This document shows, piece after piece, positions 4,818 to 63,762 of a stretch of 64,000 nucleotides of DNA. The DNA comes from Actinomycetota bacterium. GTDB taxonomy: Bacteria > Actinomycetota > Thermoleophilia > BMS3ABIN01. The position numbers and the translations under genes were made by a program. The stretch spans positions 436 through 64,435 of the forward strand of contig JAMDDD010000009.1 in assembly GCA_023489275.1 (NCBI GenBank), written 5' to 3'. The notes beneath the pieces were generated by a model. The model was not told the DNA's origin. It saw only the letters and a list, made by a program, of their open reading frames with translations, and did not search any database. Positions within the stretch are counted from its first letter, which is position 1. The number at the start of each line of letters is the position of its first letter.

Positions 4818-5870
4818 ATGTCAAAAACAGAGTATAACGTCAAAACCATAGAGTGGCAGAGCGATGAGGTCGTGATGATTGACCAGCGGGTGCTGCCGCT
4901 TGATGAGAAGTACATTCATCACAAAACCTGGCAGGAAGTAGGGGATTCGATCAAGACGATGGTCATCCGCGGCGCGCCGGCGATCGGGGTCGCCACCGCC
5001 ATGGGCATGGCGCTCGCCGCCATGCAGTCTCCGGCCACGACATATGAAGCGCTGAAGCAGGATCTCGATGCCGCCGCCCAGGGATTGTTCATCACCAGGC
5101 CCACCGCCTATAACCTGGGCTGGGCCCTTCAGGAGCAGGCCAAAATTTATAACGAGCCTGGCGATCCCGACGATATCCGCCGCCGCCTCAAGGAGCGCTC
5201 CCAGGAGATTCTCGACGAGGACATCGCCATGTGCGTTGCCATTGGGGAGCACGGGGCGCCGCTCTTTCCCAAGGGAGCCCGCATCCTCACGCACTGCAAT
5301 GCGGGAGCGCTGGCGACGGCCGGCTACGGAACGGCGCTGGGCGTCATCCGGTCGGTATTCAAGCGGGACCCGAGCATCATGGTTTACGCCGACGAGACGC
5401 GGCCTTTTTTGCAGGGAGCCCGGCTGACCGCCTGGGAGCTGCAGCAGGAAGGCATCCCCTGCTGCCTGATTACGGACAATATGTCCGGCTACTTTTTTAA
5501 GAAGGGTGAAATCGACGCTGTCGTGGTCGGCTCGGACCGCATCGCTGCCAACGGGGATGTCGCCAACAAGATCGGGACTTACACCGTCTCGGTGCTGGCA
5601 AAAGCGCATGGCGCGCCTTTCTACGTTGCGGCGCCGACATCAACAGTGGACCTGAGCATTCCCCACGGCGATCACATTCCCATTGAAGAGCGAGATCCGG
5701 CAGAGGTTACCCACTTCCGGGAAGTGCAGTGCGCCCCCAGCGGCATCGACGTCTGCAATCCCGCTTTTGACGTGACCCCTCACGAGAACGTCAGCGCCAT
5801 TATCACTGAGGCCGGCGTACACCTGGAACCCTATTCGGAAAGCCTGGCCGCCGCGAAGAAAGGCAAATAA
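4818..5870 (+). CDS. mtnA: S-methyl-5-thioribose-1-phosphate isomerase (eIF-2B-like family)
   Basis: 350 aa, conserved GAPAIG and CNAGALAT and DRIAANGD motifs. Confidence 0.85.
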   Translation: MSKTEYNVKTIEWQSDEVVMIDQRVLPLDEKYIHHKTWQEVGDSIKTMVIRGAPAIGVATAMGMALAAMQSPATTYEALKQDLDAAAQGLFITRPTAYNLGWALQEQAKIYNEPGDPDDIRRRLKERSQEILDEDIAMCVAIGEHGAPLFPKGARILTHCNAGALATAGYGTALGVIRSVFKRDPSIMVYADETRPFLQGARLTAWELQQEGIPCCLITDNMSGYFFKKGEIDAVVVGSDRIAANGDVANKIGTYTVSVLAKAHGAPFYVAAPTSTVDLSIPHGDHIPIEERDPAEVTHFREVQCAPSGIDVCNPAFDVTPHENVSAIITEAGVHLEPYSESLAAAKKGK

Positions 5871-6989
5871 TTGAAGGCGATGGTACTCGCAGCCGGCCTG
5901 GGCACCCGCCTGAGGCCACTCACCGGCTCCATCTCCAAACCGATGGTGCCGATTGTCAACAGGCCGGTAATGTATCATATATTAAGTTTGGTCAAAAAAC
6001 ATGGATTTGACAAAGCTGTCGCCAATCTCCATTATCATCCGCACGCCATCACCAATTACTTTGGCCGGGGGCAGAATGTTGGCATCGAGCTTCGTTATTC
6101 GCTCGAGCCCAAGCTGCTGGGCACCGCCGGCGGCGTCAAGAATGTTGAGAACTTTCTTGGCGGCGGCAGCTTCCTGGTGATCAGCGGCGACGCCCTCACT
6201 GATCTTGATCTGACCAGGCTCGCCCGGCAGCACCAAGAGGCCGGCGGCATCGCTTCACTGGCGCTCAAACGGGTCAAGGACCCGAGCCGGTTCGGCGTTG
6301 TCATCCAGGGCGAGAACAACCGCATCGCCGGCTTTCAGGAAAAACCGCCTCCCGGGGAAGAGCTGAGCAATCTATGCAACTGCGGCATCTACATTTTCGA
6401 GCCGGAAATCTTTGATTACATCCCGGAGAAGAGTTTTTACGACTTTGGCAAGCAGGTCTTTCCCAATCTGGTCGCCAGGGGCGTTCCTTTCTACGGCTTC
6501 GAGATTGACGGTTACTGGAATGATGTCGGCAGTCTGGCCCAGTACCGCATCGGCAATTTCGACGCCCTTACCGGACAGGTCAAGGTGGAAATCCCCGGTG
6601 AAGAGATTCTTCCCGGCATCCATGTTGGCAAAGGCACCTACATCTCGAAGACCGCCAGGCTGGAGCCGCCGGTTCTCCTCGGCGACTACTGCCGGGTCGG
6701 TGAAGGGGCCAGCCTGATCGGGCCCCTCACCGTCGGTGATCACAGCGTCATTGAAGCCGGCGCTTCACTCGAAGGCGTGATTAAATGGCGGGCGGCCCAG
6801 ACCGGCGCCGGCGCCCAGGTAACCGGCGGCATCATTGGCACCGGGGCGCACATCCGGGATGATGTTCATATCGGCGACCGGGCTGTCGTGGGAGACCGGT
6901 GCGTCATCGGCGCCGGCAGCGTCATCGGCCCTGAGGTCAAGCTGGAGCCGTTTACCGTAATCGAGGCAGAAAGCCATATCGGAAACTAA
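5871..6989 (+). CDS. sugar-1-phosphate nucleotidyltransferase with C-terminal left-handed beta-helix (mannose-1-P guanylyltransferase-like)
   Basis: N-terminal MVLAAGLGTRLRPLT nucleotidyltransferase motif; hexapeptide repeats at C-terminus; TTG 5871 or ATG 5880 start. Confidence 0.8.
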   Translation: MKAMVLAAGLGTRLRPLTGSISKPMVPIVNRPVMYHILSLVKKHGFDKAVANLHYHPHAITNYFGRGQNVGIELRYSLEPKLLGTAGGVKNVENFLGGGSFLVISGDALTDLDLTRLARQHQEAGGIASLALKRVKDPSRFGVVIQGENNRIAGFQEKPPPGEELSNLCNCGIYIFEPEIFDYIPEKSFYDFGKQVFPNLVARGVPFYGFEIDGYWNDVGSLAQYRIGNFDALTGQVKVEIPGEEILPGIHVGKGTYISKTARLEPPVLLGDYCRVGEGASLIGPLTVGDHSVIEAGASLEGVIKWRAAQTGAGAQVTGGIIGTGAHIRDDVHIGDRAVVGDRCVIGAGSVIGPEVKLEPFTVIEAESHIGN

Positions 6990-19010: not shown

Positions 19011-19272
19011 GGCGATGATTTTTTTCACGGTCTGGCGGGTATAATTATCAGGACGATATTATTAAAGTGGCGCCAATGGCGGTCAGCGCCATCGCAAGGC
19101 AGGCAGCCAGCCCACCAGGAGGAAAAACACTTCCAGATTGCCAAGCAAACCGTTTTACGTTATAGTTATGATGCCCGCTGGCCGGGCGAAGATAATTGGG
19201 TTGCAGTGCTGGACTGATGCTTTGGCGAGGTTCGAGTACGCTTCCACGGGAAATTCGAAGGGAGGAAAAACC

Positions 19273-19473
19273 TTGCCGGAAGGAACAGTCAAATGGTTCT
19301 CCGACCAGAAAGGCTACGGCTTTATTGAACAGGAGAACGGCAGCGATCTATTCGTTCACTTTTCCGAGATCCAGGGCGACGGCTTCAAAACCCTTGCCGA
19401 GGGTCAAAAAGTGAGCTTCGAGCCATCTGAAGGGCCGAAAGGCCCTCAGGCCACAAATGTGCGAGTACTGTAA
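19273..19473 (+). CDS. cspA: cold-shock protein (CspA family)
   Basis: RNP1-like [12 protein letters not shown] and RNP2-like VHFSEI motifs; TTG start 6 nt after GGAGGA. Confidence 0.85.
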
Positions 19474-19486
19474 TTGTTGCTAATGC

Positions 19487-19518
19487 CAAAAGGCCCTCCG
19501 CCAGGAGGGCCTTTTTTT
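19487..19518 (+). terminator. rho-independent terminator after cspA
   Basis: AAAGGCCCTCCGCCAGGAGGGCC hairpin followed by TTTTTTT. Confidence 0.8.
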
Positions 19519-20842: not shown

Positions 20843-22357
20843 TTATAACTTGATATCGAAGTCCATGTCATCGGAAGCCATCATGCGGTTGGCAAAGTAG
20901 TTAATGTACTTTGCCGACAGCCCGGCTCCGATGAACAGTCCGGTAAAGAAAACCCAGGCGCTTGGATTTCCAAAAGCAGCCGGCCCGTAAAAGGCGCCAA
21001 TGTTGCAGCCCAAGCCGACCCGGGCGCCGATTCCCATCAGGGTGCCGCCGCCAACGGCGTAGCCCCATTGCGCCTTGGAGTGCGGGAATTTCCACTTAAA
21101 CTCCCGCGCCGTCAAGGACTTGAAAGCCGCCCCGAATATCAGTCCGACGGAAAGCAGGAGCGCCGGACTGAGCCAGGGATTGGGCAGCCCGTTGTCCTGG
21201 CCAAAATAGGAGTTGTTCGCCATGGAAAAATCGGCATGGCGCAGTATCCAGCCGCCTAACATGGCTTCCTGGGTGGTGATATACCAGTAACCCGGATCAA
21301 AAACAGTATTGTTGTGAGATACGTCGGGGTAGGTCGCGTGTGTCTTGGGCCAGCTGGATGGAGCCTTGGCGGACACCGGCTTCCCGTTGGGCAGCTTCTG
21401 ATGAACCGCCGGCTGACCCGCCAGCACCTGGCCAAAATTGGTAAAGTTGTAACGATTCTGGAGCCAGGCCAAAGTGAAGATCTGGGCGCCGGCCACGATG
21501 CCGATGAGGATGGCGGCAATCGAGGTGCGGCGCGAGGCGCTGATCATTGACCAGAAGCCGGCCAGCTCGTCCTTGAAGCCGGCCTTGACGGTGCCACCGT
21601 CGGCCGTGGCGCCAGCGGTGGCGGCTATCTGTCTGGTGCGGCGCTTGAGGTATGGCTTGCGCACGACAAAGATATAAACGCCGATCAATAGCACCAGCCC
21701 GACGAGAACTGCGTTGATGAGGGTATCCCCCACCAGGTGTTGCCAGAAGGAATACTTTGCATTTGGATTGCCGACGCCGCCAAACAGAAGCTTGGTGACG
21801 CCCCAGTCATTCAGCGTCTTGCCGGTGATAAAGTGTGCCTTGAACCAGTCGAAGACCGTCGCGTTAAAAATGGCCTGGGAAAAAGCAAGCGAGAGGAGCA
21901 CGACGAAGGAAATCATGTTGCCTTCCCCGGTCTTGTAAAGGCTGCCGGTGGCGCAGCCTCCGGCAAAGACCATGCCCAGCCCGAAGATGATGCCGCCGAG
22001 CAGTCCATGAAAACCAATTGATTCAATGATGTACTTGTCAGGATAAACCGAGACAATATACGAATTGACAATGCTTAACATGATCAGGCCAATGATGATG
22101 CCGACGAACATCCGCGGCACCTTGACCATAATCAGGTCGCGGAATGCAGAGGCAAAGCAAAACCTGCCATACTGCTGCAAAATGCCATAAAGAAAACCAA
22201 ACCACATGTAAGCAACAATGTAAACGTACACGGGTGCAGACAAAAGATACAGGATCGAAAGGATCGCCACGAATCCCAGCACCCCGATAGCGTAAATTTT
22301 GTGTCTATACTTTGTTACGGCGTCTGCCATACCCCATCCTCCTTTGTGTTGTGCCAA
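20843..22357 (-). CDS. YeeE/YedE-family sulfur-compound (thiosulfate) transporter, long variant
   Basis: Two internal repeats each carrying the family Cys motif (GGCATGSLYKTGEG and GLGCNIGAFYGP); polytopic; 504 aa with a ~150-aa insertion relative to typical family members. Confidence 0.75.
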   Translation of the reverse strand: MAQHKGGWGMADAVTKYRHKIYAIGVLGFVAILSILYLLSAPVYVYIVAYMWFGFLYGILQQYGRFCFASAFRDLIMVKVPRMFVGIIIGLIMLSIVNSYIVSVYPDKYIIESIGFHGLLGGIIFGLGMVFAGGCATGSLYKTGEGNMISFVVLLSLAFSQAIFNATVFDWFKAHFITGKTLNDWGVTKLLFGGVGNPNAKYSFWQHLVGDTLINAVLVGLVLLIGVYIFVVRKPYLKRRTRQIAATAGATADGGTVKAGFKDELAGFWSMISASRRTSIAAILIGIVAGAQIFTLAWLQNRYNFTNFGQVLAGQPAVHQKLPNGKPVSAKAPSSWPKTHATYPDVSHNNTVFDPGYWYITTQEAMLGGWILRHADFSMANNSYFGQDNGLPNPWLSPALLLSVGLIFGAAFKSLTAREFKWKFPHSKAQWGYAVGGGTLMGIGARVGLGCNIGAFYGPAAFGNPSAWVFFTGLFIGAGLSAKYINYFANRMMASDDMDFDIKL

Positions 22358-29578: not shown

Positions 29579-29936
29579 GGGGGCGACCTGGTTTCGACGG
29601 GGTCGATCTGGACGGGAGCAGCAAGCCGAGCTGCCGGCGGGCTCGTTAAACAGCCGGAAAACCTAAAGTAAACGCAGACAATAATCTCGCGTTAGCCGCT
29701 TAATTTAAGCGGCTCGTCGCCCCCGGTTCGTCCGTGACCGGGACCAGCGGCGTCAGATAGCGGACTACGCCACCGCGGCCGCCTCTCGCCGTAGTGCGCG
29801 AAGCCTTAGGGAGGCTGGCGAACCGGATCCGGTCTTCGCGGAGCCGGCGCGCGAGATTTAAAAGCGAAGACTAAGCTTGTAGCGGCTCCCCTTCGGGTGG
29901 CTTCGGACGCGGGTTCGATTCCCGCCGCCTCCACCA
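29579..29936 (+). ncRNA. ssrA: transfer-messenger RNA (tmRNA); predicted tag peptide ADNNLALAA (resume codon GCA at 29684, stop TAA 29701-29703)
   Basis: 5' end GGGGGCGACCTGGTTTCGACGGGG and 3' end GGACGCGGGTTCGATTCCCGCCGCCTCCACCA (tRNA-Ala-like acceptor/T-arm plus CCA); internal ORF ending LALAA-stop. Confidence 0.9.
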
Positions 29937-44831: not shown

Positions 44832-44894
44832 CCTCTCACGGTGGCCATCTTGACAAACTCAGTCCGGGCCCATATGCTGCCAATCATTACATAG

Positions 44895-45080
44895 CTTCAG
44901 CCTGTGAGTCGCTGAAAGGCGCTTGAGGGAAACCGGTGAAATACCGGTGCGGTCCCGCCACTGTAACTGGAAGCTTTGCGTGTAGTCGGTCCCGTTCGGA
45001 TCGAGTCACTGGGTAATAAACCCGGGAAGGCTAGCAGCAAAGCAAAATCCAGAAGCCAGGAGACCTGCTCACAGGCTCTA
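44895..45080 (+). promoter_or_regulatory. cobalamin (AdoCbl) riboswitch
   Basis: Conserved core GGGAAACCGGTGAAATACCGGTGCGGTCCCGCCACTGT and B12-box AGCCAGGAGACCTGC (45054-45068) upstream of cbiM. Confidence 0.8.
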
Positions 45081-45196
45081 GTCAAGAAACTCTCCGAGGA
45101 GGGAGTGGCTAGGGTTCTGCATCGGCCTTATCTATTAAGCCTCCTTCTTCGGAAGGGGGCTTTGGTCATGTATAGGCAGCGACGTCAGGAGGCAGT

Positions 45197-59398: not shown

Positions 59399-59498
59399 CT
59401 TTCTAATTTCCAGCATTTGCAAACTTGCATTCCTTGACAATTATATATAAATAAATAATTATGAGTTTATGTAATTTAGAGAACCCTGTTGCTCTGGC

Positions 59499-59858
59499 AT
59501 GGCGGCATTGACGAAAAATAACATCAAACGTGACAGGATAGAGCTTCTTAAGTTAATGGGCCATCCCTTGAGGATCCAGCTTCTGGAGAAGCTGATGGCG
59601 GGCGTCACCTGCGTCAGTGACTTTGAGGGTTTTTTTGACACGAGCCAGCCAAACATATCCCAGCATCTGGGGCTGCTCCGGCGGGCCGGCCTGATTGACT
59701 ATTACATGGATGGGCGGCTCAGGTGCTACTACCTGGTTGATCCGATCGTCCCGGATCTGCTGAAGCTGCTCAGGAAGGAATATGAAGAGGACCTGGAGCC
59801 GCCTGCCTGCTGCCCGGTTACCAAGACAGGAAAGTATCCTGGTGACCGGCAGCACTAA
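59499..59858 (+). CDS. ArsR/SmtB-family metalloregulator-like repressor
   Basis: HTH region LRIQLLEKLMAGVTCVSDF...ISQHLGLLRRAGLI; C-terminal Cys pair PPACCP. Confidence 0.75.
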   Translation: MAALTKNNIKRDRIELLKLMGHPLRIQLLEKLMAGVTCVSDFEGFFDTSQPNISQHLGLLRRAGLIDYYMDGRLRCYYLVDPIVPDLLKLLRKEYEEDLEPPACCPVTKTGKYPGDRQH

Positions 59859-59905: not shown

Positions 59906-60337
59906 ATGAGCGCAACAGAAAAAACCGGCAAATCCGTATCCATCATGTGTTTCCACGACGAAATGTGCCAGGTGTTCAACGCCTTGATGACGGCGCAAAG
60001 CCTGCTCCGGTCCGGCTCAAAGGTGGCCATCTTTTTTGGGTCGCGGGGGATTAACGCCGTTCACAGGGACAAGATCGACAAACTGGTGTGCCTGCCGGAC
60101 CAGCCCCAGGAAGTGCAGGACGCGGTGGTGAAAAAGATGGAAGAGATGGATCTGCCGGAGATCAGCCTGCTGATGGAGTCGCTCTACTATGAGGGGGCAA
60201 AGCTTCTGGCCTGTCCTCTCAACCTGAACGTCTTCGGCATGAGCAAGGACGACCTTGTGCTGGGCGTCACGGTGGCCGACCCCGCCACCTATTACAAGGA
60301 AGTAATGCTGGCAGCCGACATGAACCTGGCTTTTTGA
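59906..60337 (+). CDS. DsrE/DsrF-like family protein
   Basis: 143 aa; DsrE-like Rossmann-type pattern with Cys near N-terminus (SIMCFHDEMC) and LLACPLN; tentative. Confidence 0.45.
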   Translation: MSATEKTGKSVSIMCFHDEMCQVFNALMTAQSLLRSGSKVAIFFGSRGINAVHRDKIDKLVCLPDQPQEVQDAVVKKMEEMDLPEISLLMESLYYEGAKLLACPLNLNVFGMSKDDLVLGVTVADPATYYKEVMLAADMNLAF

Positions 60338-60380
60338 CCTGCTCAAACGTAAGCGATGGTAAGAAGAAAGGATTTGGCAG

Positions 60381-62012
60381 ATGAGAGTTGAGGAAGAAAG
60401 TTACAAGGGCGTAGAGGAAGGGATGGAAATCCCGCTTCAGGAACTGGGATTACCCGCTCCCGACAAGGGGCTGCTGATCGTTTTCTGGAAGGGGCAGTGA
60501 CAGGGCTGCCGGCGGGAGGCTCCCGCTGTAAAGCGCCTGTATGAGCGCTTCTCTTCCAAAGGATTCTCCGCCATTTACATTGGTCCTTATGAAACAGGGG
60601 AAGCCTGCCAGCAATGGAAGGAAGAATACCAGCTGCCATTTGAAGTAGTGCCTGACAAGGAAGGCTCGATTTTCAAGCAGCTTAGCAACGGCTGGGTTCC
60701 CTATTCGATTTTGGTGGGGCCGGACGGCAAGGTAATTTTGTGGGAAAGCGAGTTTCAGGAGTCGGGCTTCTCTGCCGCGGTGGAAAAAATCTACGAAGAA
60801 CCGGCCCAAACAGAGGCGCCGGAACCGGTGCTCCAGGCGGCGCCGCGGCGAGGGCCGGCATATGGCGCCAATATCCTTATCCTCGGCGGCGGCGCCGGCG
60901 GACTGGTGGCCGCGTATCAACTGCGGAAGCGGCTTTCCGGCAGGGACCGAATCGTCGTGGTCGACCGCGAGCCCAACCACCTGTTCCAGTCTTCGCTGCT
61001 CTGGCGGGCGGTGGGGATGCGCCAGACGGAGCAGATTCAGCGGCCGCTGTCCGATCTGACCGGCACGGGAGTCGAGTTTGTCAACGAGCCCGTGGTGCAG
61101 ATAGATCCGCAGCGCAAGCAGGTGCGAACCTCGGCGCGGGAGCTCGATTATGATTTCCTCATCGTCGCCCTCGGCGCCGAGCTGGCGCCGCAAGAAGTGC
61201 TTGGGTTCGAGGAGATGGCCTTCAATCTCTACGATCTGGACGGCACGGCCAAGATCAACGCCGCCCTAAATGAATTTTCCGGCGGCGAAGTGGCGGTGCT
61301 TGTCACCGACATGCCCTTCAAATGCCCGGCGGCGCCGTATGAAGCGGCGTTGCTGGTCGATTCATTTCTGCGCAAAAAGGGCCTGCGCGACAGATCGGAG
61401 GTTCACCTCTTTACGCCGGAGCACCAGCCGATGCCAATCGCCGGTCCGAAGCTGGGCGAAGCGATAACGAACGTGCTTGGCAAGCGCGGCATCCAGTATC
61501 ATCCCCTGTTTACTTTCGAATGGATCAGCCCCGGTGACCAAACCATCATTCCCTCCACCGGCGACCCGCACAAGGTCGATCTGCTTCTTGCCATACCGCC
61601 CCACCGGGCTCCGGAAGTCATCCAGTACTCCGGCCTCATCGGTTCTTCCGGATGGATGCATGTCGATTCGCATACATTGAAAACCGAGTACGATGGCGTG
61701 TATGCGATAGGCGACGTCAATAATATCCGGCTCGCCAACGGCAAGAATCTGCCGATGGCCGGAGTTTTTGCCCATTACGAGGCCAAGGTCGCCGCTGAGC
61801 AGATCGTCGCGGAAATAAACGGGGAGCCGTCAAATGCTTCATTCGACGGTAAGGGTTTTTGCTGGCTGGAGCTGGGCGGCGGCAAAGCCGGATTCGCCGC
61901 CGGCAACTTTTACGCCGAGCCTGAGCCCGCCGTTCGCCTTTACCCGCCCATGCGCTCCTGGCACTGGGGCAAGGTCGCCTTTGAGAAGTGGTGGCTGCGT
62001 CACTGGTTCTAA
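60381..62012 (+). CDS. candidate selenoprotein: TlpA-like redoxin (UxxC, Sec at in-frame TGA 60498-60500) fused to sulfide:quinone-oxidoreductase-like FAD flavoprotein
   Basis: Thioredoxin-fold motif LLIVFWKGQ-TGA-QGCRREAPAVKRLY aligns with FWASWCGPCRAEMP; same frame continues into the FAD GG-fold (ILILGGGAGGLVAAY), the SQR-type CPAAPYE motif and GKGFCWLE Cys. Confidence 0.55.
60510..60528 (+). other. candidate bacterial SECIS hairpin 10 nt downstream of the in-frame UGA
   Basis: CGGCGGG-AGGCU-CCCGCUG: 7-bp stem (one G-U) with 5-nt GG-containing apical loop. Confidence 0.4.
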
Positions 62013-62230: not shown

Positions 62231-62629
62231 ATGGAGCCGTTCCGTTATCACGTTTACGTCTGTGTCCAGGAAAAGCCGGACCCCGCCGCGCCCAGCTGCT
62301 CCAATAACGGCGGTAAAGAAGTGCTCGATGCCCTGCGGGAAGAACTGGGAAAGGCAGGCCTGGGCGACGAGGTCCAGGTGACTACCGCCGGCTCGCTGGG
62401 GCTCTGCACCCGCGGCCCGAACATGGTTGTGTATCCTGAAGGCACGTGGTATTCGGGGGTGCAGGTGTCGGATGTTCCAGAAATCGTCAGCGAGCATTTT
62501 GTCAAGGGGAGGCCGCTGACAAGGCTTGCCAATCAGGACGCCGCCGCCTTAAAAGCGGAGATCCTGGAAAACAAGCGAAAAATACTCGCGGCGATGAAGG
62601 CGGCCCGGGAAGCGCAGTCGCAAAAGTAA
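62231..62629 (+). CDS. thioredoxin-like [2Fe-2S] ferredoxin
   Basis: Cys pattern VYVCVQ...C-x4-C...LGLCTRGPNMVVYPEGTWY; GGAGG RBS. Confidence 0.7.
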   Translation: MEPFRYHVYVCVQEKPDPAAPSCSNNGGKEVLDALREELGKAGLGDEVQVTTAGSLGLCTRGPNMVVYPEGTWYSGVQVSDVPEIVSEHFVKGRPLTRLANQDAAALKAEILENKRKILAAMKAAREAQSQK

Positions 62630-62661
62630 ATAGCGCCCCCCGCATACATCCATTTTGTACC

Positions 62662-63762
62662 ATGATTCAGGATAGTAATCAAATTTGCTGCGATGTTGAC
62701 GGCGCCCTTCCCCTGACCGAAACCAGCCCGGGCCGTGAGCCGCCGCAGATAGCGGGGCAGGTTGGCTTTGAAATCAGCCGCCGGGAGCGATGGGAGCATT
62801 TCCGGTGCCGCCTCGGCAGCTTCCGGGACAGGTATTCGGTAGCGCCCGGCCTGTATGCATTTGGCAACCCCGGTCCCCAGGGGGACGTTCTTGTGAGCGC
62901 CAGCTACAAGCTCAGCTTCGATACACTCAGAAAGGAACTGGAAGGGCTGGACTGCTGGATCCTCGTCCTGGACACCAGGGGCATCAACGTCTGGTGCGCC
63001 GCCGGTAAGGGCACTTTTGGCACCGCCGAGCTGGTCCGGCGGATCGGTGCCACGCGCCTGGGAGAAGTTGTTTTTCACCGCCGCCTGCTGCTGCCGCAGC
63101 TGGCCGCACCCGGGGTAAATGCCGCTGAAGTTCGCCGGCAAACAGAATTTAAGATCTCGTTCGGACCAGTGCGGGCGGCGGACATCCCGGCGTACATGAA
63201 GGCTGGTTACCGAAAAACGCCGGCGATGAGCACTGTCTCCTTCGGCCTCAGGGACCGCCTGGTATTGACGCCGATGGAGCTAAACCCCGCCTTAAAAAAG
63301 TTTCCCTGGTTCGCAGCCATGGCTATACTCCTCTTTGGCCTCCAGCGGCGGGGCATCATGTTTACTGATATATGGAACGGCGGTGGCATGGCGTTCCTGA
63401 TCCTGGGCCTGACCGCGGTGGCCTCCGGGGCTTTCCTGACGCCGGTTCTGCTTCCGTTCCTCCCCTGCCGCTCCTTTGCCGTGAAGGGATGGATCGCCGG
63501 GCTGGCGGTGGTATTTTTGACATCGCTGATTCCAATCGTATCCGCGGCAATGAACAGCCGGCTGCTGCTGTTTGCGGCATACCTTCTTTTTCCGGTAATC
63601 AGCTCCTACCTGGCGCTTCAGTTTACCGGGTCGACGACCTTCACGGGCATGTCCGGCGTCCGAAAAGAACTGAAGATCACCTTGCCGGTATACGCGGCTG
63701 CCGCGGCTGTTTCATTGTTCCTGCTAATTATGTTCAAGTTGACCGAATGGGGGAAGGGATGA
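62662..63762 (+). CDS. hgcA: mercury methylation corrinoid protein HgcA
   Basis: Diagnostic cap-helix motif GINVWCAAGKGTFGT, corrinoid-binding domain followed by 5 TM helices; ATG 62662 (track ORF has a spurious upstream extension). Confidence 0.85.
   Translation: MIQDSNQICCDVDGALPLTETSPGREPPQIAGQVGFEISRRERWEHFRCRLGSFRDRYSVAPGLYAFGNPGPQGDVLVSASYKLSFDTLRKELEGLDCWILVLDTRGINVWCAAGKGTFGTAELVRRIGATRLGEVVFHRRLLLPQLAAPGVNAAEVRRQTEFKISFGPVRAADIPAYMKAGYRKTPAMSTVSFGLRDRLVLTPMELNPALKKFPWFAAMAILLFGLQRRGIMFTDIWNGGGMAFLILGLTAVASGAFLTPVLLPFLPCRSFAVKGWIAGLAVVFLTSLIPIVSAAMNSRLLLFAAYLLFPVISSYLALQFTGSTTFTGMSGVRKELKITLPVYAAAAAVSLFLLIMFKLTEWGKG

Follow-up and report, generated by a model that had tools for sequence, protein, structure and literature searches.

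Gene, reading frame and domains

We analysed a stretch of 64,000 nucleotides (the window) from contig JAMDDD010000009.1 of an Actinomycetota bacterium of the class Thermoleophilia. The plus strand of the window carries, at 60381-62012, a frame of 543 codons that begins with ATG at 60381 and ends with TAA at 62010-62012. Translation revealed one internal stop in this frame, a TGA at 60498-60500 (codon 40), in the context LLIVFWKGQ-TGA-QGC-RREAP. An earlier note made from the sequence alone had placed this TGA at the first Cys of a redoxin CxxC motif, in a frame that continues into a flavoprotein of the sulfide:quinone oxidoreductase (SQR) type, and had proposed a selenocysteine (Sec) protein. 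The translation of 60381-62012 agreed with the note on the position of the TGA and on the otherwise open frame. Sequence comparison indicates that 60381-62012 is very probably one gene encoding a genuine selenoprotein fusion, and that the in-frame TGA is almost certainly its Sec codon. TGA terminates 9 of the 26 Pfam-supported genes of the window; the genetic code is therefore the standard one. The parts of the gene are listed below.

60366-60372, plus strand: Shine-Dalgarno-like GAAAGGA, 8 nt before the ATG; AAAGGAG-like motifs stand before the aligned start in most orthologues.
60381-62012, plus strand: predicted complete selenoprotein gene, 543 codons plus TAA, with Sec at codon 40.
60381-60497, plus strand: the 39 codons 5′ of the TGA (MRVEEESYKGV...GLLIVFWKGQ), which form the start of the redoxin fold and are conserved at the protein level in 35 loci.
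60426-60752, plus strand: redoxin (AhpC-TSA/ResA-like thioredoxin-fold) domain, amino acids 16-124, with active site U40-Q-G-C43 and Glu46, assigned by Pfam and ResA alignment.
60498-60500, plus strand: in-frame TGA, putatively read as Sec (U40); the TGA column is conserved and holds Cys in ResA and in P0121, a stand-alone Cys redoxin described below.
60510-60528, plus strand: hairpin resembling a Sec insertion sequence (SECIS), with core 60511-60517/60521-60527 and loop GGC at 60518-60520, within the C-R-R-E-A-P-A codons.
60798-60854, plus strand: Pro/Ala/Glu-rich interdomain linker, amino acids 140-158, poorly conserved in sequence and with a predicted local distance difference test score (pLDDT) below 50 in the AlphaFold model.
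60870-62009, plus strand: SQR-type FAD flavoprotein domain, amino acids 164-543, with GxGxxG at amino acids 169-174, assigned by Pfam, the NF049943 match, and sequence and fold matches in PDB.
61323-61325, plus strand: Cys315 (MPFKCPAAPYE), predicted first redox-active cysteine, aligned with the Cys of VKCAGAPQE in human SQOR and invariant in the family.
61860-61862, plus strand: Cys494 (GKGFCWLE), predicted second redox-active cysteine, aligned with the Cys of DGYTSCPLV in human SQOR and invariant in the family.
61953-62003, plus strand: predicted C-terminal Trp/Lys/Arg-rich helix, amino acids 525-541, WHWGKVAFEKWWLRHWF, conserved in sequence.

Domain searches were run on a translation with Cys placed at codon 40. 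Pfam assigned amino acids 16-124 to AhpC-TSA/Redoxin. The best solved relative of this N-terminal domain is ResA, whose FWGTWCKPCEKEMP aligns with FWKGQ[U]QGCRREAP; the TGA thus falls on the N-terminal Cys of CxxC. In thioredoxin-fold proteins this Cys is the nucleophilic one, not the resolving one. The earlier note was therefore correct in placing the TGA at a CxxC cysteine, but not in calling it the resolving Cys. The Glu three residues past the second Cys (U-Q-G-C-R-R-E) is also kept in the ResA alignment. The NCBIfam models of ResA and TlpA gave scores far under their cut-offs. Neither a signal peptide nor an N-terminal membrane anchor was found; the highest Kyte-Doolittle value among 19-residue N-terminal windows was 0.88. 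The first 30 amino acids have a net charge of -5, and the N-termini of orthologues are conserved and acidic. Such an acidic N-terminus lacking a hydrophobic segment indicates that the protein is cytoplasmic. The TlpA/ResA-type assignment in the note thus applies to the fold, as the ResA alignment confirmed, but not to the exported or anchored nature of TlpA-like proteins.

In the C-terminal half, Pfam detected Pyr_redox_2 plus FCSD_central (FCSD central domain) at amino acids 164-455. The nearest solved structures by sequence were human SQOR, flavocytochrome c sulfide dehydrogenase, and the SQRs of Acidianus, Aquifex, and Acidithiobacillus. The best NCBIfam match of this domain was NF049943 (type III SQR, selenoprotein; 251 bits, E 1.7e-74); because the cut-off of that model is 525 bits, the protein is not a member of the family. 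An AlphaFold model of residues 41-543, which leaves out residues 1-40 and with them strand 1, had a mean pLDDT of 83.9 and a predicted template modelling score of 0.84. Its flavoprotein part had pLDDT mostly above 90, the linker (140-158) was disordered, and a helix was formed by residues 525-541. The best fold matches of the model were SQRs, with a template modelling score of 0.83 to human SQOR (normalised to the target). SQRs have C-terminal amphipathic helices; here one conserved Trp/Lys/Arg-rich helix is predicted, and the protein probably sits at the membrane surface through it. The note had described an SQR-type FAD half with FAD motif, CPAAPYE and a distal Cys, and this description is supported by the alignment of C315 and C494 with the cysteine pair of human SQOR.

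The TGA codon and its hairpin in relatives

The gene was compared with DNA from species-representative genomes. Thirty-five loci gave alignments that began no later than residue 22 and spanned all or almost all of the protein, with 41-95% identity; their sources are Thermoleophilia, Gaiellales, other Actinomycetota, Acidobacteriota, Gemmatimonadota, Desulfobacterales, and Myxococcales metagenome-assembled genomes (MAGs). A stop was present in the same alignment column in 35 of 35 orthologues, and it was always TGA, never TAA, TAG or a Cys codon. The upstream 39-40 codons were conserved as protein (M[KR]V..ES.KGV..G....L.ELGLP....G.L[IL]VFWK..), including the M[KR]V start, which is preceded by an AAAGGAG-like ribosome-binding site in most loci. 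Pairwise differences at codon positions 1, 2, and 3 were 0.37, 0.26, and 0.60 in the upstream segment (third > first > second), and 0.25, 0.21, and 0.41 in the 25 codons 3′ of the TGA. No start codon after the TGA was conserved among the 35 orthologues; the first candidate was scattered between codons +10 and +72, and for this reason the starts assigned by gene callers are inconsistent. A protein-database search returned 6263 relatives, of which the best 120 were 391-504 residues long, covered 71-92% of the query, and all lacked the N-terminus. The called starts of database members vary, some lying right after the TGA (MTCRQEAP..., LGCRQESP...) and others 30-90 residues later. The conserved start, the coding signature 5′ of the TGA, and the lack of a conserved restart bear out the proposal of the note that a single gene is fused in frame to the SQR-type flavoprotein.

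Metagenomes were scanned with the motif F-W-K-x-x-[codon]-x-x-C-R-[RQK]-E-x-P, in which the critical codon was set as either Cys (TGY) or TGA. The scan gave at least 120 matches with TGA and 0 with TGY. The upstream 39 codons were free of stops in all 117 TGA contigs that had enough sequence, and an open reading frame (ORF) of at least 330 residues with an FAD motif followed in 67 of the 74 contigs having at least 1 kb downstream. In 55 TGA contigs, the KCPxAPxE active-site motif was reached within the same ORF. Altogether, the TGA is retained in more than 150 other genomes and metagenome contigs.

The segment downstream of the UGA contains a SECIS-like hairpin, which is the centroid structure of the local fold and was given independently, with the same helix, by the RNAalifold consensus of 30 orthologues. 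The earlier note had proposed such a hairpin and its folding as a check. The hairpin is real, and its stem and loop differ from those drawn in the note: the conserved stem is GGCGGGA/UCCCGCU (60511-60517 with 60521-60527) around a 3-nt loop GGC, and an extra C-G pair in this sequence extends it to 60510-60528. According to a 2026 review (PMC13188914), a bacterial SECIS (bSECIS) has a loop of 3-9 nt, a stem of 4-16 bp, G in the first two loop positions, a UGA-to-loop distance of 16-37 nt, and a minimum free energy of -7.5 kcal/mol or lower. Here the loop has 3 nt (GGC, GUC or GUG, with G first), the stem 7 bp, and the spacing 17 nt, and the energy is -11.9 to -13.4 kcal/mol; all these values are within the bSECIS limits. 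Alignment of orthologues, another check that the note had proposed, revealed TGA in 35 of 35 loci, a conserved hairpin, and no conserved separate start for the SQR part.

Covariation of the hairpin was examined in an alignment of 30 orthologous reference-genome segments, with slides of the partner column and 500 shuffles as controls. The 7-bp helix was paired in 99.5% of cells, compared with 37-58% after the 3′ partner was slid by 1-3 columns, and the observed covariation score was matched by 0 of 500 shuffles. Pair 20-30 was A-U in 19 and G-C in 10 distinct reference sequences; pair 18-32 was G-C, G-U or A-U among the aligned orthologues. Eighty-nine distinct metagenome segments, found with a search pattern that left free the four lower 3′ stem columns (including the 3′ column of pair 20-30), had standard pairing at all seven positions, and pair 20-30 was A-U in 70, G-C in 19, and discordant in 0. 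The main compensatory change couples CGG to CAG (Arg to Gln, non-synonymous) with CCC to CCU (Pro, synonymous), a coupling not expected from protein selection by itself. G-C at pair 20-30 occurred in the Thermoleophilia-type clade and also in loci L029, L034, and L038. These three share a GUG loop with the A-U sequences L025-L028 and L041, which suggests that the A-U/G-C exchange happened more than once.

Cys counterparts were sought with the N-terminal domain alone. This search gave three matches, of which P0121 (L081 1290-1823, JGI metagenome 3300041075) was the one stand-alone Cys form. P0121 is a redoxin of 177 residues, FWKEQCTTCRKEAP, with 55% identity, encoded on a 2.5-kb contig with no flavoprotein gene downstream. 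Its Cys aligns with the TGA position, which gives a Cys/Sec pair. Most of the hairpin persists in P0121, but one pair that never varies among the Sec forms is an A.G mismatch there; P0121 looks like a recent Sec-to-Cys conversion after the SQR domain was lost or separated. An exhaustive phmmer search with P0121 for a Cys-type redoxin-SQR fusion returned just truncated family members and generic redoxins (21-42% identity), and the flavoprotein domain was absent from 6 of 6 multidomain matches checked. No Cys-type redoxin-SQR fusion was found by tblastn across all 80 loci.

Two other loci were observed. The orthologue L038 (6001-7613) has two more in-frame stops, at codons 229 and 302; it is either a decaying copy or wrongly assembled, and to judge by its record name it stems from the MFD survey series that also supplied several other loci. 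On Vicinamibacterales chromosome OZ244656.1 (L031, ~5550-6000), an SQR-only relative retains a short in-frame remnant of the redoxin end, DEDGYTRVIASLYGAP, with stops before it, an indication that this lineage once had the Sec-redoxin domain and lost it.

Known relatives and gene neighbourhood

Redoxin-type selenoproteins with UxxC are well known, for example the Prx-like thiol:disulfide oxidoreductase, the Redoxin family, and the UGC TlpA family (PMC13188914). The Prx-like, Redoxin, and thiol-disulfide isomerase-like selenoproteins (PF00578, PF08534, cd02966) resemble the protein described here in the UxxC thioredoxin fold and in the bSECIS downstream. However, the review lists these families by a redoxin-type domain alone, with no flavoprotein partner, whereas here such a domain makes up the N-terminal part of a 543-residue protein that also has an SQR flavoenzyme. 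ResA, TlpA, and CcmG (PDB 4nmu, 1st9, 1jfu) have the FW..CxxC..E..P context and the cis-Pro loop region in common with it. These proteins are exported or anchored and use Cys, whereas our protein has a predicted Sec and an acidic N-terminus and is tethered to a flavoprotein.

A type III SQR that contains Sec was reported in 2025 (PMC13188914); the Sec belongs to an HxxU motif inside the flavoprotein, and Cys homologues have been reported. This family (NF049943), the closest NCBIfam model, is likewise an SQR-family protein that uses Sec. Its Sec lies within the flavoprotein, whereas the flavoprotein described here is all-Cys and the predicted Sec belongs to the additional redoxin domain. Human SQOR and bacterial SQRs (8dhk/6oi5, 3hyv, 3sz0/3t2z) share with our protein the fold, FAD motif, and redox cysteines, and a C-terminal helix is predicted here as well; however, SQRs of known structure have ~21-23% identity to it and no fused redoxin domain. 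A flavoenzyme of two dinucleotide folds with a small tethered redox or sulfur-transfer domain, which shuttles to the active site, is found in CoADR-rhodanese (3ict), CoA-persulfide reductase (8a56), and Npsr (6pfz), which are among the fold matches; in concept, thioredoxin-glutathione reductase and AhpF follow the same design principle. The CoADR-rhodanese-type enzymes are NAD(P)H-driven, and their extra domain is C-terminal or of another type. Our protein differs from them in its N-terminal Sec-redoxin, its SQR-type cysteines, and a probable quinone and membrane connection.

The earlier note could name no described family with this fusion, and our searches gave the same outcome. The redoxin-SQR fusion is not among the 119 selenoprotein families in PMC13188914, nor among the fusions described in the GOS study; full-text literature searches yielded no description of it, and no model of NCBIfam 20.0 reaches its cut-off on the protein. 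These comparisons indicate that a known Sec-redoxin module is joined to an SQR in a fusion that is new, widespread, and to all appearance Sec-obligate.

Upstream of the selenoprotein gene the following features were found.

59434-59462, plus strand: promoter-like site TTGACA-17-AATTAT upstream of arsR, found by consensus match only.
59499-59858, plus strand: ArsR/SmtB-family regulator (Pfam HTH_5), 119 amino acids, with Cys38, Cys76, and Cys103-Cys104.
59906-60337, plus strand: DsrE/DsrF/DsrH-like protein (Pfam DrsE_2), 143 amino acids, 43 nt upstream of the selenoprotein gene.

The arsR gene, the DsrE-like gene, and the selenoprotein gene are consecutive on one strand, and a transcription unit of the three that starts near 59434-59462 is possible. 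Of 36 loci compared, 20 have an ArsR-family gene no more than ~4.5 kb from the selenoprotein gene; in most of them it is upstream, at a distance of up to 2.5 kb. The ArsR-family regulator is the sole widespread neighbour, and it is fused to rhodanese in ten loci from four phyla. An example is the 226-residue ArsR-HTH plus rhodanese fusion of L003 (~5238-5915); such genes lie within ~1 kb upstream, with a median start ~860 nt before the TGA. The others are in L004, L005, L006, L012, L016, L017, L024, L030, and L035. The ArsR-rhodanese fusion is a candidate sulfur-responsive regulator. BigR and SqrR are both among the PDB matches of the window ArsR, below Rv0081 and generic ArsR proteins; the window protein resembles these two persulfide sensors no more than it does other ArsR proteins. 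A DsrE-like gene is upstream in 7 of the 36 loci, all of the Thermoleophilia-type clade.

On the other side of the selenoprotein gene, a ferredoxin-like ORF without Pfam match (62231-62629) is followed by hgcA (62656-63762; CdhD-like, with the cap-helix motif NVWCAAGKG) and by hgcB, which starts at 63760 with an ATGA overlap. A second promoter-like site precedes this block. The note had linked the gene to the methylmercury locus. Among the 36 loci, however, hgcA adjoins it only in L001, the genome with 95% identity; a functional tie to hgcAB was rejected, and the link to mercury methylation is evidently coincidental. HgcB of the window has GVGC in place of the GVGU listed for selenoprotein HgcB (PMC13188914), with Cys instead of Sec. 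Elsewhere in the window, 20843-22357 (minus strand) encodes a YeeE/YedE-type sulfur-transport protein of 504 residues, long for its family, with Pfam Sulf_transp in two stretches. The YeeE/YedE family has known selenoprotein members (GUxSG). The window also contains a cobalamin riboswitch at 44889-45086 (98.5 bits) and a tmRNA gene at 29579-29936 with tag peptide ADNNLALAA. An Rfam match to the cspA thermoregulator at 19132-19518, just 3′ of an FtsX gene, scored 79.6 against a threshold of 78 bits and may be marginal or false.

Proposed sulfur relay and its alternatives

The conserved SQR fold and both SQR-type cysteines point to sulfide as the substrate. Known SQRs give sulfane sulfur to free acceptors or build polysulfide, and the acceptor is still debated for these enzymes. 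We propose that UGA codon 40 is decoded as Sec, directed by the 7-bp hairpin within the C-R-R-E-A-P-A codons. The flavoprotein domain would oxidise sulfide at C315/C494 and pass electrons via FAD to membrane quinone, leaving a cysteine persulfide. The tethered redoxin domain would then swing in on its flexible linker of ~20 residues, and the selenolate would take the sulfane sulfur as a Se-S adduct, filling the acceptor role that small thiols or sulfite have in type II SQRs. Downstream carriers, among them perhaps the DsrE-like or rhodanese proteins encoded nearby, may then receive the sulfur; C43 would be available for resolving dead-end adducts, and the adjacent ArsR-family regulator probably controls expression. 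Compared with a thiolate, a selenolate is both more nucleophilic and more readily displaced as a leaving group, and this would account for the lack of observed Cys forms of the fusion.

Taken as a whole, a single-gene cytoplasmic selenoprotein of 543 residues, with a Sec-decoded UGA, a redoxin-linker-SQR architecture, a proposed sulfur relay, and ArsR control, is the best explanation of the locus, and we consider it likely. The function of U40 as a built-in sulfur acceptor is a tentative part of this explanation, to which we give somewhat less than an even chance. Slightly more doubtful is the possibility that the proteins form an unrecognised, essentially obligate-Sec SQR class in which the tethered Sec redoxin gives the enzyme a sulfane-sulfur acceptor of its own via a Se-S relay.

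Several points weigh against this explanation. ARAGORN and Rfam revealed no tRNA-Sec in the window, Pfam scans of its 20 longest plausible ORFs revealed no SelA, SelB or SelD, and no tRNA-Sec was found in the flanks of the 35 orthologous loci. The missing Sec genes are uninformative rather than negative, as just 64 kb of the genome is covered; nevertheless, with no selA, selB, selD or tRNA-Sec in the window or flanks, the Sec competence of the organism is a matter of inference. Sec decoding itself is predicted from sequence comparison. The hairpin overlaps the conserved peptide CR[RQ]E[AC]P, such that part of its conservation is protein constraint and the covariation rests mainly on two pairs. 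With regard to function, we infer which substrate is used, which way the sulfur flows, and what Sec does; the DsrE-like neighbour is limited to one clade, and in sequence the ArsR regulator is not specifically BigR/SqrR-like.

The main functional rival retains the same selenoprotein but makes the redoxin an electron donor. The selenol/thiol pair would be oxidised by the C315-C494 disulfide and the electrons would go to quinone, with a logic like that of VKOR-thioredoxin fusions; the protein would then be a thiol, protein-dithiol or persulfide:quinone oxidoreductase, or a sulfide-fuelled peroxidase. The N-terminal domain does belong to the AhpC-TSA/ResA thiol-disulfide oxidoreductase group and keeps the Glu after the second Cys. 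Flavoprotein disulfide reductases with fused redox or sulfur-carrier domains exist, and persulfide reductases are among the fold matches. Electron transfer from a dithiol to quinone is thermodynamically downhill; judged by redox potentials, reduction of the redoxin by quinol is unlikely. However, the conserved SQR-type cysteines and whole SQR fold point to sulfide, sulfane-sulfur handling is a better match than disulfide formation for the rhodanese and DsrE-like proteins that recur nearby, and the cytoplasmic location makes disulfide generation unlikely. We regard the electron-donor role as rather unlikely, though as a serious competitor of the sulfur relay.

Much less probable is a programmed read-through of the UGA that inserts a standard amino acid such as Trp or Cys, stimulated by the hairpin. 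Hairpins that follow stop codons can, as a rule, favour read-through, and this possibility would accord with the Sec machinery not being observed in the window or flanks. However, the position is that of the nucleophilic Cys of CxxC, a classic Sec/Cys site, and none of the four bSECIS constraints is violated by the hairpin, whose loop starts with G. A need for Cys would also be expected to show as a Cys codon in some of the more than 150 orthologues, and none was found.

We consider it highly improbable that there are two genes, one for a 39-residue peptide terminated by the TGA and another for an SQR that restarts downstream, as public gene calls have it. The database proteins of the family do all begin after the TGA; however, no start is conserved there (+10 to +72) and the called starts differ between orthologues. 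Such a split would also divide the thioredoxin fold, with strand 1 on one side and the active-site helix on the other, and leave an upstream peptide that has no function of its own and matches the N-terminal part of AhpC-TSA/ResA.

The nonsense-mutation alternative raised in the note, in which TGC or TGT became TGA and inactivated a Cys-type redoxin-SQR gene, would suit a single sequence with one in-frame stop and no Sec machinery visible in the window, but it is effectively refuted by the TGA kept in 35 of 35 orthologues, with protein identity as low as 51%, and in at least 120 metagenome contigs, by coding constraint that persists on both sides of the TGA, and by the lack of a Cys-codon version of the fused gene in any search.

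Gene calling truncates members of this family. The best 120 of the 6263 protein relatives are stored in N-terminally truncated form, and the active-site half of the redoxin is lost in each. Five members with an NCBI name are plain "FAD-dependent oxidoreductases" derived from truncated gene calls. The ratio of Sec to Cys forms is unusually extreme, with at least 120 against 0 from a single motif scan, and Sec use is implied in MAGs of Thermoleophilia/Gaiellales and Gemmatimonadota from soil and groundwater. A natural fusion of this kind provides SQR with a built-in candidate acceptor of sulfane sulfur. If the SQR is indeed obligately Sec-dependent, sulfide detoxification or oxidation would be selenium-dependent in Thermoleophilia/Gaiellales, Gemmatimonadota, and Acidobacteriota that are abundant in soil and groundwater.

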